A stretch of 64,000 nucleotides of DNA from Heterodontus francisci (lineage: Eukaryota): contig NC_090374.1 in NCBI RefSeq assembly GCF_036365525.1, positions 99,690,762-99,754,761 on the forward strand. The letters run 5' to 3'. Below the pieces are notes generated by a model, which was not told the origin of the DNA, did no database searches, and saw only the letters and a program-made list of their open reading frames with translations. Numbering within the stretch: the first letter of the stretch is position 1; each line of letters begins with the position of its first letter. This document shows, in pieces, positions 1,867-58,780 of this stretch. The translations under genes and the position numbers were made by a program.

Positions 1867-1939
1867 TTTGGAAGTTCTTCAGCAAAAGCCCTTCCTGAAC
1901 TATACAAGAGATCTGATGTGCAAAATGAAGACCGAATAG
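1867..1939 (+). CDS. SNCAIP: SNCAIP coding exon, 73 nt (FGSSSAKALPELYKRSDVQNEDRI)
   Basis: Acceptor ttttgtctctgtag, donor G|gtattt; resembles human YSVTSLKTIPELCRRCDTQNEDRS; ends in phase 1, matching the next exon. Confidence 0.9.
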
Positions 1940-53125: not shown

Positions 53126-55169
53126 TGTTGTATGCAAAACTTTTATATTCCTTTTTATTTGCAAAATTACAATTAATTAATAAATAACTACATAGTTTAC
53201 ATTTGTCACTGGATGGAGATCTAAAAACATAACACTATAAAGTTTTCTCTACTATTGGAACGTTTTATGCTTTTATTTCTGTCATAAAAATGATTTGCAA
53301 TAACCTGAAAGTTTTTTTTTCCTTTGGGATTAGTTATTTAATGTAAGAACAGCAATCAAGTAGTAACCATTTCATCAGAACTCTTTTTTTTAACTGAAAT
53401 GTCTGCTATGTGATTTAGGCAACATTAGTCATGTTTGAAGTTTTATTTTGCTCAATGTTTGCTTGGAATTTGATTTTAAAGTTGTTAAAACTTTGATTTG
53501 CACTTGTTTAGTTTTGTTTTTTTCTTAGAATCCCATGGCACTATTGTTTGAACAAGTAAACTTGTAATGCAATCCTAAATATGATGTAAAAGCTGTAGAA
53601 GTTGACACTGGATATGAGTTTTTTTTTAAAAGAGAAGGGTTGTATCATCTGCAACACATTTAGAAATCCCAAATGCAAAAATGATTTTTTTTCCATTTCT
53701 CTTTTTTTGTATATATGATTGAGGTTGTCTAAAGATGGGGCTGTTGAAATCCAAGGATTTTTGTTCTCAGCCCTATGAGGTTATTGATTTAGCACAAGCA
53801 GATAGAAAAATAATTTAGGAAGCTGTATTCAGTGAACTTGTATTCAGCACTTTCCTGAAATCAAGTCATAAGATAGGAAGCTTGAAACACAAGATTATTG
53901 AAGTGAGGTCTGTTAATGGCCATCATTATACAGTTGGGATAGTAATTGCTCCAGGGTGAAGTCCTCCATGCACTATGTTTAAACAAATGTACTCTGACAA
54001 ATAAACACAGGAACTGTTAAGATAATTGATTTTACTTTTAAAGGACTATAACCCTTTAAAGGGAGTATGTGCTTATGTATTAATTACCTGTATTTGCTTA
54101 ATAGGAACTATTGGATAAAGTGAACATTAACTCATGAGGGTATTTCTGTTTAGTTTTTACTGTGTTTATGATGAAAGGATTCATACACTATGTGGCTGAT
54201 AGGAGAATGAATGATCCCTTATGTAAAGCTGTAGAAACCCACATGGAAATGTGTGTTAATAGTATTAATCCATTTAAGATGTTTTTTTACAGATACTCCT
54301 TTCATGGTTTTACTTGGAAAAAATTCTTAAAATGACAAATTTTTAATAATTTATCTTTACAAAAACACTGGCAGTGCTGTACAAATCTTTCATAGGGCAT
54401 GCTAGAAAATTTGTTTTTATCACCCTGCATACCAGCTGGGATTCAGTTGCTAAAGAATCAGCTATTATTTAATCCTCAGCGCATCTTAACCCTTTATTCA
54501 AAGGATCCCTCTTTTTGTTTTTTTTTAGTCCATTACAAATTAAAAACATCAACATTGTCTACTCCTATTTCCCCCAAAATGTCTTCTCAACAAAATTGTT
54601 GCTATGACTGAGTTTAAAGAATAGTCATATCTAGTAAACTAGCAATCGTAGCACTGAGGGTCAGAGTGGCTCATGTTTCTATAAATTAACTCTGCCTTGT
54701 TAAAATTGCAAGAGGACAAACTTTGAATATAAACTGGGTGAAAAACAGAATTGGAATTTATTTCACAAACTTTTGATTATGATTATATTTTGTTATTTTG
54801 GAATTTAAAAAGATAGCCATATGGTGCTACGGTTGTAATTGCTCCAAGTACAAAATCTTTGTAAAGTAGCTGTCCAGGCAACCGCTGCTGGACAAGGGAC
54901 CACAAGATCTTATTCATACAGCTGAAAAGTAGTGCCATGGTGTTCTTGTTGCTACTTGATGTATAAGAAGGAAACCATTTGTTAGGCCAGTTTCTGGAAT
55001 AGGAAAGGAATAATGTGAAATGCTTAATTTTATTAAATTATTTTCTAATTCATTTGTATGAACATAACTTATTCTTAAGTTGCATATATTTGTCTTCTGG
55101 TGGCTGGGGGTTTTGCTTTATCTGGCTGTATTTGGCTTGCATATCTGAATAAGTATTCACCTCTCTTAG

Positions 55170-55228
55170 GACCTTTGCAGCAACAATGTTCCTTCTGCAT
55201 GCTTACTGATCAAAGGAACTGGGGCATG
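55170..55228 (+). CDS. SNCAIP: Candidate cassette exon equivalent to synphilin-1A exon 9A, 59 nt (DLCSNNVPSACLLIKGTGA+W)
   Basis: Acceptor ttcacctctcttag, donor TG|gtatgt; length 3n+2 and open; weak similarity to recalled human EMYSSCINLSSNMLIE; shifts the last exon into its long frame. Confidence 0.7.
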
Positions 55229-55743
55229 GTATGTTTGAATGCTACAAAAGGGAACTTACTTGATTCACGTATTATTGGCTGTTGGTTTTGTATTAACTTC
55301 ATCTTTTGTGTCATAAACCTAACAAGTATGGAACTAACTCCTGTTTATTCATTGTTAACTTTTAAGCCAAGCTAAATAATGTTCATTCCTAACTTCAGTC
55401 AGACTTAATTATTTTCTAACATACAAATTGTAGTTACTAAAACTTCTCTTCTGCATTATCCATTCTATAAATTGAATATTTAATCAGAAGTTACAGTTAG
55501 TGATCACTTCACCATAAAAATGCTCCCTCTTGCGTTCAGAAAATGTTTTTCAATTGATGTCTTTTTTCAGTAATTTTAAACAAAAGAAAAAATGTAATAT
55601 GATTAAAATCTAAGTAATAAAATGGGAACCTAATTATGTTTAATTTTTAACTAACATTTTCAGAATAGGCTGAAAGGGCTTACATTAATTTAGGTATTTA
55701 TAACGAATCCTGACAATGGAATGATAAAATTAATAAAAAAATT

Positions 55744-55937
55744 CTGGAAATACTCAGCAGGTCTGGCAGCATCTGTGGCGAGAGAAGCAGAGTTAACATT
55801 TCAGGTCTGTGATCTTTCATCAGAACTGGGCAGTTCTGATGAACGGTCACAGACCTGAAATGTTAACTCTGCTTCTCTCTCCACAGATGCTGCCAGACCT
55901 GTTGAATATTTCCAGCATCTGCAGTATTTTGCTTTTA
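55744..55937. mobile_element. Head-to-head inverted pair of Penelope-like ends, each with a hammerhead core
   Basis: 85-bp arms (55744-55828 and 55831-55915), about 5 mismatches, 2-nt spacer; cagttCTGATGA...GAAAtgttaact on both strands. Confidence 0.8.
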
Positions 55938-56705
55938 TTTTAATGGAATTATAAAATTTGCTAATTTTCCACATAATGAGATGCATGTTACTCATAGAAG
56001 TACTCATTGCTATCCTTCTGTGACATGTTTGTCCTATTAATTTGACACACATCTTTCCTCAATATTAATCAATGAATACTTCCTTAATCATCTGTATTGA
56101 AAAAAAGAGTCTGCCTAAAGGTTTATTTTTAAAATTAATGAATTGGCTGTTCTAAACCATATATCAGAATCTACAGTCTTCAAACAGGGTGGGATTTGTT
56201 TCTGCTGGAAAAAACAGATACCTATGAACTTGAATGTTTTTAAAAACCTAAACTCTATGAATATTATTGTCCATTTTCTCTTTTAAATCCCAAAGAAAAT
56301 TATTATTAGTGAAAGTTTAATTTGAATAAATCAAGAGCAAATGACATAACCACGTGAAAATAGGTCTCTCTTTTTCAGAAAAGGTGAAAAGCAAAGTAAT
56401 CTAATTGGCAGATATTCTTTTCCACAGAGCATTAGCTCAGCATGTCTCAAAATATGGCCAAACTGCCTTCTCTGCTTTGGTGTTGGATTATTATTCAAGA
56501 GTTTTCAGGGAGAAGTGGGTGGGGATAGAAAAGTGGGTGAAAGGAAAGAACAATCAATGAATTGTAAAGGAACCAAACTAATTTCAGTGTCTGCAATGCT
56601 GTGATGATAATTCATCTTCCAAAGATTTTTCTGAAACTTAATTTTTGTTGGTGATTATTAAAAATGTAGATATCTAACTATGTTTTAATCATTTTGTTGT
56701 TGTAG

Positions 56706-56720
56706 GCACAGCCACTTTAG
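56706..56720 (+). CDS. SNCAIP: SNCAIP terminal exon, canonical frame (AQPL*)
   Basis: Branch-like tctaac near 56673, acceptor ttttgttgttgtag, exon opens with GCA as recalled for human (A*). Confidence 0.85.
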   Translation, partial: AQPL

Positions 56721-56802
56721 TGACCAGCTCAAGAATTCTATGCTGAAGAATATCTTTGATAAAAACATGGAGGAAACAGAGTTACGAGAAATCTTCCTAT
56801 AA
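56706..56802 (+). CDS. SNCAIP: SNCAIP terminal exon, alternative 1A-type frame (HSHFSDQLKNSMLKNIFDKNMEETELREIFL*)
   Basis: 31 open codons after the first base, ending TAA at 56800-56802; resembles the recalled human 1A end ...KHIAEPESKELFL*. Confidence 0.8.
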
Positions 56803-57049
56803 ATTATGGTAGCTATAATGCAAATTCTATTCAGTGGTGGGACATCAGCATTCTGAAGCACATGATTCAGCCTCATGTAATCCAAACCTAGAACATAACA
56901 AATTGTATAAAAGGTGGTTTTTAATGAAAATCTGGAACAACAATAACCATATCTTCAAACTGTACCCAGGGAAAAGGGTGAAAAGGGAAAGAATGCATCA
57001 GGCTGAAGACAATAGGCTAGTGCTGCATTCCTAAATACAACAGCTGATT

Positions 57050-57055
57050 AATAAA
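57050..57055 (+). terminator. Candidate proximal polyadenylation signal AATAAA
   Basis: First AATAAA I noted after the SNCAIP stop codons; motif only. Confidence 0.3.
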
Positions 57056-57489
57056 TCCAGTGACCTGAATAAGGTCAACTTGTATTACTGGGCATACCTG
57101 TGCAGCCAATTTTGGACAGCTGCCTTATGACTCAAACACCATGTGTTGAGAAAAGTGGTCAGCAGTCTGTATCACACAAAAATATGTTTGTATTATCCTA
57201 ATTTCAGTGGAAATGTTTTTGAACATATGGTACAGAATGATCTGAGTTGTGTATCAGGCAAGTTGCACCGAATTTTATGCTAATCTTCCCATCGGTGAGT
57301 TATGTTATTTTTCCCAAGAATCTCTAGTAAATGCCGGAAAGTAAAACCTTGCGTAAAACCATTTGAAACCGGCATAAATAATTGTAGGTAGAGGAAAATG
57401 CTGAACTTACACCACGTTCCTTCTTCAGCTCCCTCCATGCAAAAGATTCAAATTGGAAGCCATCAAATTTTCACTTATGCACTTCGGGA

Positions 57490-58780
57490 GATCATAGGAA
57501 ATGGGAGCAGGAGTTGGCCATTCAGCCCGTCGTGCCTGCTCCACCATTCAAACAAATCATGACTGATCATCTACCTCTATGCCGTTTTCCCCACTATCCC
57601 CAAATCCCTTGATGTCGTTAGTATTCAGAAATCCATCGATTTCTGTCTTGAACATGCTCAACGATTGAGCTTCCACAGCCCGCTGGAGTCGAGAATTCCA
57701 CAGATTCACCACCCTCTGAGTAAAGAAATTCCTCCTCATCTCAGTCTTAAATGGCCTTCCCCTTACTCTGAGACTGTGTCCCCATGTTCTAGACTCACCA
57801 GCCAGAGGAACATCCTATCCACATCCACCCTGTTACACCCTGTAAGAATTTTGTGAGTTTCAATGAGATCACCTCTCATTATTTGAAACTCTAGAGAATA
57901 CAGGCCCAGTTTCTGCAATCTCTCCTCATAACACAATCCTGCCATCCCAGGGATTAGTCTGATGAACCTCTGTTGCACTCACTCTGCAGCAAGTATATCC
58001 TTCCTTAGATAAGGAGACCAGAATTGTACACAATACTCCAGGTGGGGTCTTACCAATGCTTTATACAATTAAAGCAATGCATCTTTACTCCGGCACTCAA
58101 ATCTCCTTCCAATGAAAGCCAACATATCATTTGCCGCCTTAATTGCTTGCTGCACCTGCACACCAGCTTTTAGTGACTCCTGAACAAGGACACTCGGGTC
58201 TCTTTGGACATCACCATTTCCCAACCTCTCACCATTTAAGAAATACTCTGCCTTTGTGTTCTTGCTACCAAAGTGGATCACTTAACACTTATTCACATGA
58301 TATTCCATCTACCACGTTCTTACCCATTCACTTAAACGTCAAAATCCCCTTGAAGCTTCCTTGCATTCTCCTCACTACTTACATTCCTTCCTAGTTTTGT
58401 GTCATCTGTAAATTTGGAAATATTACAATTGGTCGCCATATCCAAGTCATTTATATAGGTTGTGAACAGCACTGATTCTTGCATTACCCCACTAGTAGCA
58501 ACCTGCCATCCTGAGAATGGCCCATTTATTCCTACACTCTGCTTTCCATCTGTTAACCAATTCTCAATCCATTGCAGTATATTACCCCAAATCTCATGTG
58601 CTCTAATTTTGTTTACTAACCTCCAGTATAGGACCTTATGAAAAGCCTTCAGAAAATCCAAATGTACCACATTCACCGGTTCTCCTTTATCTATGCTACA
58701 AGTAACAGCCTCAAAAAATTCTAATAAGTTTGTCAAACATGATTTCCCTTTCACAAATCCATATTGACTCAGCCCAATCT
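57490..58780 (-). mobile_element. CR1 LINE, RT through 3' end
   Basis: KGKSCLTNLLEFF, FTDDTK, RNFFTQRVVNLWNS. Confidence 0.9.

Follow-up and report, generated by a model that had tools for sequence, protein, structure and literature searches.

The last coding exon of the shark synphilin-1 gene (SNCAIP) can be read in two frames, which raises the questions of whether a short upstream exon selects between two C-termini, as in human synphilin-1A, and which of the two ends is the older. The DNA analyzed here (the window) is a stretch of 64,000 nucleotides from Heterodontus francisci whose + strand carries the bulk of the gene. An earlier note, made from the letters of this DNA, had taken the gene to be a synphilin, and this identification was borne out by the exons, which match the RefSeq synphilin-1 of the same species (P0121) at 98-100% in six of eight HSPs and at 97% and 82% in the other two. 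The genome contains one SNCAIP locus, and Pfam matches on its relatives comprise the ankyrin repeats and the synuclein-binding coiled coil (PF16700) of this single-copy gene. The relevant features of the locus are:

Upstream of the window (L006:2258): SNCAIP coding exon 1
1867..1939, + strand: SNCAIP coding exon 2, 73 nt, holding a TAG (1937-1939) that ends the +1 frame
48080..49139, + strand: the large exon before the switch, here called exon 9, with a phase 0 end and donor GTGAGT
49140..49178, + strand: intron read-through frame, 12 codons and then a stop, whose counterpart ends most elasmobranch protein models
55170..55228, + strand: cassette exon, 59 nt, phase 0 to 2, the counterpart of human exon 9A, with donor GTATGT
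56706..56720, + strand: last exon, short frame, AQPL and a stop, reached by the direct join to 49139; RefSeq P0121 ends in this way
56707..56802, + strand: last exon, long frame, 31 codons ending EIFL and then TAA
57050..57055, + strand: first AATAAA 3' of the stop

The contig alignment of exon 9 begins at 48078, and its start was placed at 48080, where an AG fits on both sides; the exon contains an RVTF motif, which is also kept in amphioxus. The contigs continue beyond 57400, so the AATAAA at 57050..57055 is not established as the transcript end. The last intron carries high-copy repeats at 51387-52654 and 55736-55945, the latter marked by very deep contig coverage and by joints that link opposite strands. 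Elsewhere, an intronic long simple tandem repeat (~32100-35900) gives rise to spurious proline-rich open frames, and the introns contain many reverse-transcriptase-like fragments.

All of the junctions proposed for the switch were verified (49139/GTGAGT, AG/55170-55228/GTATGT and AG/56706), as were the two usable frames of the last exon and the role of the 59-nt cassette in supplying the phase of the long one. At the DNA level, the gene thus has an additional exon, located between its last two, whose inclusion would shift the frame of the final one. The cassette is flanked by AG and GT, contains no stop and consists of 19 codons plus two bases of a Trp codon (TG/G). The direct join of 49139 to 56706 gives AQPL and a stop, and the route via the cassette gives a 51-aa tail (20 + 31 residues) that closes with EIFL and a stop at 56802. 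The cassette is single-copy genome-wide, which rules out a repeat-derived origin for this exon. The earlier note had also proposed that total tail length is maintained in shark and human by compensating 12-nt changes in the cassette and the last-exon frame. This did not hold up: across species, tails range from 50 to 54 aa, cassette lengths span 59-77 nt and the last frame varies between 26 and 31 codons, and the equal length in shark and human is therefore likely a coincidence.

An open frame of 31 codons is unremarkable alone, with a chance probability of about 0.12 at the stop frequency of the 3' UTR, and the intron contains 141 open 3n+2 AG..GT candidates. The cassette splice sites are adequate, not outstanding; with a crude home-made matrix, the donor falls in the top 6 of 329 intron GTs and the acceptor in the top 35 of 378 intron AGs. 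It is homology that decides in favor of this cassette over the chance candidates. Alignment to the chimaera cassette peptide gives the cassette a score of 59, compared with 26 for the highest-scoring of 136 non-overlapping candidates. When all 2781 six-frame segments of the window are searched with a profile built from 63 bony-vertebrate tails, the last-exon frame comes out on top (E 7e-5; next 1.4). A profile of 63 bony-vertebrate cassette peptides places the shark cassette only 5th of 141 (E 1), so that it is position, phase, the junction residue, donor context and the chimaera as an intermediate that tie it to mammalian exon 9A.

Contigs from 4 of 15 listed runs, corresponding to at most two samples, were aligned to the window; none of the listed holders is on record as RNA, and the RNA status of these runs is a guess. 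The junction between 49139 and 56706 is seen in single contigs of runs X1 and X3, and the skipped form therefore exists. It is the one junction observed; no cassette junction stands among the joints listed for these contigs, which are unable to show absence. The bin 54874-55190 has no cover in any of the four runs and the bin 55191-55507 has a trace in one (0.76 in X2), cover that was not counted as evidence because contigs drop rare forms. The high-copy repeat at ~55736-55945 crowded the joint table, which has at least 76 joints beyond those listed. A second organism (run X4) differs from the window at 11 positions over 56706-57400, none of which lies within 56706-56802; this lends weak support to the long frame (~0.19 by chance if the changes are evenly spread).

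Among the tails compared, the closest match to that of the shark is from a chimaera, Callorhinchus milii, in the predicted synphilin-1 XP_007897520.1 (P0139, 972 aa), which has the same tail architecture and 31-codon last frame with a cassette of 65 nt instead of 59. Its tail of 53 aa is identical to that of the shark at 27 of 53 positions (z 18.9, none of 1000 shuffles as high), with 11/22 identities in the cassette part and 16/31 in the last-exon part (~51% of the tail); the corresponding figures for exon 9 are 270/354 (76%), and 59/75 for its last 75 aa. Shark and chimaera share the two splice sites, the phase, the Trp at the junction, the last-frame length of 31 codons and the terminal motif, and constraint in the tail is concentrated at the junction and in the last seven residues. 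Comparison with nine bony-vertebrate tails gave z values of 4.7-10.3 (0/1000 shuffles in each case), the primate tail standing at 4.7. A later chimaera RefSeq model (XP_042201621.1) has the short end, ARPL. A homologue search with the tail alone (P0139, residues 915-972) failed to retrieve even its own query and is uninformative.

An E-x-F-L end is found in 58 of 154 stored proteins, from mammals, marsupials, birds, turtles, crocodilians, squamates, gar, paddlefish and chimaera, and the tail is also present in lungfish, three caecilians, bowfin and sturgeons, which were added after the 154. All comparative evidence consists of predicted protein models. For 10 of 11 species with annotated short and long forms, the two ends fit a single DNA sequence read in frames offset by one base; the position of the junction is unique in chimaera (ARPL and a stop) and lungfish (ARTPQ and a stop), and one-residue cases fit 2-4 positions. 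The 11th pair, from paddlefish, failed, two paralogous copies having been paired. The two-frame exon is thus preserved in chimaera, lungfish, gar, bowfin, sturgeon, caecilians and primates. The donor context is similar as well: read-through models continue after the junction residue as WYV in paddlefish and sturgeon and RYV in a rodent, and the window would give WYV and a stop. Since short and long ends come from one DNA in chimaera and lungfish, the switch is of at least jawed-vertebrate age and, as the earlier note had argued, predates the split of cartilaginous and bony fishes. The human numbers given there also fit the primate proteins, which have a 51-aa tail with the same ending and from which a 71-nt cassette was deduced; the name 9A and its 71 nt, which we take to be those of the human exon, were checked against primate proteins alone. 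Long forms are already in RefSeq for many vertebrates, and the chondrichthyan tail is already a database gene model. The tail was found in none of four coelacanth proteins and none of eight teleost-type representatives, and loss in teleosts is possible. These eight teleost-type models (P0155, P0158-P0160, P0179, P0182, P0235 and P0273, two of them named) end just past the exon-9 equivalent.

The intact cassette and 31-codon frame would therefore give the shark a tail matching those of chimaera, bony-fish and tetrapod synphilins, and we think it probable, with some reserve, that the long end is the older and that skipping makes the short one. Two synphilin models from Lampetra end in QEFFL, the same five residues as the chimaera, and hagfish models end otherwise. 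Because the lamprey end is older than jawed vertebrates, it is likely that the long end is ancestral and that skipping, not inclusion, is the derived frameshift. The terminal motif is very probably vertebrate-wide in age, and the chances that it is chordate-old or older are about equal to those that it is not.

Beyond vertebrates, proteins from amphioxus, hemichordate and starfish group with vertebrate synphilins in a tree (100/100) and share N-terminal and post-ankyrin motifs with them. The tree included 14 of 25 chosen proteins, the motif pattern having missed 11 (three echinoderms and eight protostome-type), and its outgroup of five unrelated ankyrin stretches drew long-branch warnings. A search with the invertebrate alignment gave eight hits and added just three synphilins. 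In the invertebrate orthologues, W-Y-[ED]-x-S is found at a distance of 20-44 residues from C-termini that include VMYF, IYFL, ICYL and ESYL; among 101 unrelated ankyrin hits, an [FY]L end does not occur. The junction Trp of vertebrates lies 27-31 residues from the end, and its surroundings in the chimaera (KAWHD) resemble those in the hemichordate (KAWYE). Invertebrate intron positions were deduced from isoform differences of protein models. A single Gln, 23-24 residues before the W, is present or absent among amphioxus isoforms, as from a phase-0 tandem acceptor, and one amphioxus model stops exactly at the W, as from read-through of a phase-2 donor; two proteins of the sea urchin cluster (P0328 and P0329) break 23 residues before the W. 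These breaks suggest a penultimate exon of 68/71 nt in amphioxus, phase 0 to 2 and of the size of primate 9A, and a nonsense change could be another explanation of the stop at the Trp. A C-terminal acidic motif, W-Y-[ED]-x-S-D, recurs among the invertebrate relatives (P0177-P0347, mostly annotated as uncharacterised), protostome-type proteins included.

The long tail might instead be a novelty of jawed vertebrates, or of vertebrates, that arose by exon inclusion, with the likeness of invertebrate ends due to chance. The vertebrate tail profile leaves the invertebrate tails unscored (E 0.23 or worse, with E 0.25 for the lamprey tail), protostome-type proteins and hagfish end differently, and reviews, in their accessible text, describe 1A as an unusual form carrying an additional exon. 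This reading is nevertheless unlikely, if worth serious attention, given that the lamprey shares the last five residues of the chimaera, that shark, chimaera, lungfish and sea urchins all place the Trp 30-31 residues from the C-terminus, and that amphioxus and urchin isoforms break where a penultimate exon would begin or, in one amphioxus model, end.

An older long end, as favored here, does not imply that the shark still uses it. The tail was found in none of 36 elasmobranch proteins from 20 species, including the RefSeq protein matching the window. Most elasmobranch models terminate within the intron that follows exon 9, after 7-9 codons of read-through in 18 species. Of the 18 read-through models, 8 have M, L or D in place of V directly after exon 9, which suggests that the GT donor has been lost in those elasmobranchs, apparently by mutation in several lineages. 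A catshark model (P0003) uses an in-phase donor 9 nt downstream, so that donor loss need not close the route. There are thus signs that may speak against selection on the long tail across sharks and rays. The cassette could accordingly be read as a relic in the shark, an ancestral jawed-vertebrate exon that is no longer spliced in, while elasmobranchs move to short or read-through ends. The absence of the tail from all 36 proteins and the implied donor changes would fit such a reading, as would the faster divergence of the tail compared with exon 9 and the fact that the skipped junction is the form found in contigs. We regard it as quite improbable, since splice sites, phase, junction Trp, 31-codon length and terminal motif have been kept between shark and chimaera, and the catshark model has an in-phase donor at its disposal. 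Preservation of the stretch for an RNA-level reason, as a 3' UTR element of the short mRNA with the open frame as a by-product, is highly improbable: nucleotide conservation is high in a further frame used by a sevengill shark (12/12 identical) and hence not specific to the long one, but the varying position of the motif exchanges hydrophobics alone (L, F, V, I), tail indels are frame-preserving across clades, the separate cassette is also conserved with the chimaera, and 49000-58500 contains no Rfam match.

The sevengill-shark model (P0009) uses an internal donor of exon 9 (48942/48943) and enters the last exon in the third frame, with the 12 identities falling at window positions 56708-56746; the window keeps an intact internal donor. 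A devil-ray model (P0147) is similar, and with these two models all three frames of the last exon are annotated in cartilaginous fishes.

The label of synphilin-1A, which the earlier note had applied to the shark form, could not be retained. Human synphilin-1A (SNCAIP, NM_001242935, 603 aa) has the same extra penultimate exon moving the frame of the last exon, a tail likewise of 51 aa with an E-x-F-L end, and the same phase and donor context. The two differ in cassette length (59 nt in shark, 71 in human), last frame (31 codons vs 27) and short end (four residues vs one), and above all in the alternative start frame of human 1A, which is closed in the shark. An alternative ATG is present in the shark, and its frame runs into the TAG that forms the final codon of exon 2 (1937-1939); the primate counterpart of the 1A start frame was found in P0074. 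An electric-ray model (P0011) starts in the primate-1A +1 frame, and there, in contrast to the window, this frame has no stop where exon 2 ends. In the accessible text of three papers (PMC2671999, PMC4573652, PMC4468357), 1A is defined by a different start and initial frame, the loss of two exons and an extra exon, and the loss is given in reviews as skipping of exons 4 and 5. With the TAG at 1937-1939, skipping of exons 4 and 5 in the shark would not yield the 1A protein. The shark tail would instead sit on a full-length protein, resembling the ~960-970-aa 'X1' models of other vertebrates, not on a true synphilin-1A. The two events that define 1A are separable, given that the tail is ancient and the alternative N-terminus is closed in the shark. 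Reviews describe synphilin-1A, a human isoform linked to Parkinson's disease, in the parts available, as aggregation-prone and neurotoxic.

The function of the tail may reside in its last four residues. Among 56 tails cut out of the 58 (the other two, from parrots, have an extra insert and were set aside), 37 end in ELFL, 17 in EFFL and two in EVFL. All 56 have L at position 0, F at -1 and E at -3, and position -2 is L, F or V (I in the shark); one caecilian ends in EFFF, and echinoderm ends carry C or S at -2. Class II PDZ ligands have a hydrophobic residue at positions 0 and -2 of a free C-terminus, a pattern found in 56/56 tails and in the window, and the tail end would fit such a ligand. 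In an AlphaFold2 model of low confidence (mean pLDDT 38.5), the tail scores below 50 and lacks secondary structure; a tail without a confident fold would be consistent with a short linear motif. A predicted complex of the ankyrin/coiled-coil part of the chimaera protein with its own tail scored 0.01 against a mark of 0.34. An mRNA with its stop in the last exon escapes nonsense-mediated decay by the exon-junction rule, and since both stops lie in the last exon, neither mRNA should be degraded by the usual rule. We propose that the cassette would be included in some shark tissue or stage, so that splicing would turn on or off a terminal motif consisting of an acid, a hydrophobic residue, F, L and the free carboxyl. 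This motif, at the end of a predicted disordered region, would likely dock on a conserved partner. The most likely kind of partner, at somewhat less than an even chance, is a carboxyl-binding pocket, PDZ-type or similar.

Switches of this type are known. Ancient dual-coding C-terminal exons, in which splicing picks between two terminal-exon frames and hence C-termini, as in SNCAIP, have been described for 82 genes preserved across jawed vertebrates, mostly neural (bioRxiv 10.64898/2026.05.28.727796); SNCAIP was not found in the main text of that report, and its supplements may list it. In SNCAIP, both frames are preserved across jawed vertebrates (10 of 11 pairs), with the exception of the coelacanth, teleost-type and elasmobranch models, where this was not found. 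An ancient two-frame terminal exon in a neural gene thus belongs to a known class, which limits the surprise. In SYNGAP1 alpha1/alpha2, as presented in the available part of PMC9064290, SynGAP-alpha1 gains a PDZ ligand by frame choice through alternative acceptors, whereas SNCAIP would use a 3n+2 cassette; with one frame nearly empty (1-5 codons), SNCAIP is closer to an on/off tail switch than SYNGAP1. A second parallel is the tail of PP2A-family catalytic subunits, DYFL, which binds TIPRL according to the accessible portion of PMC4973239. It shares with synphilin an acid, a hydrophobic residue, F and L at a free C-terminus, a likeness in sequence over four residues alone. Hemichordate synphilins end in YFL like DYFL, and vertebrate synphilins have L, F, V or I for the Y. 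A TIPRL gene was located in the shark genome.

A pig variant with a prolonged last exon has been noted in silico in the literature, as far as its accessible text goes, and no paper dealing with how old the tail is or where it came from was found in the open-access literature. The points that are likely new are the possible reversal in which the long end is the older, the lamprey QEFFL, and the invertebrate W-Y motif with the matching breaks in amphioxus. In its fullest form, about which we are evenly divided, the favored reading holds that exon 9A and the long frame were the once-constitutive end of a chordate or deuterostome ancestor, older than the synucleins. The human 919-aa 'canonical' synphilin-1 would then be the skipped form, lacking a conserved terminal binding motif that is possibly a mimic of the PP2A-family tail, and elasmobranchs and teleosts would be independently losing or rewiring the switch. 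Synucleins are reported, in the accessible part of PMC4832246, to be vertebrate-specific, so that a tail older than these would require a different partner.

The normal function of synphilin-1 is called unknown in the available text of PMC4468357, and reviews, in the parts available, treat the tail as a peculiarity of an aggregation-prone human isoform. If the tail is instead the older, conserved end, the normal function of synphilin-1 may need a motif that is absent from the standard construct. If the 919-aa protein is indeed the skipped form, the version used in most Parkinson's work would lack the terminal binding motif.
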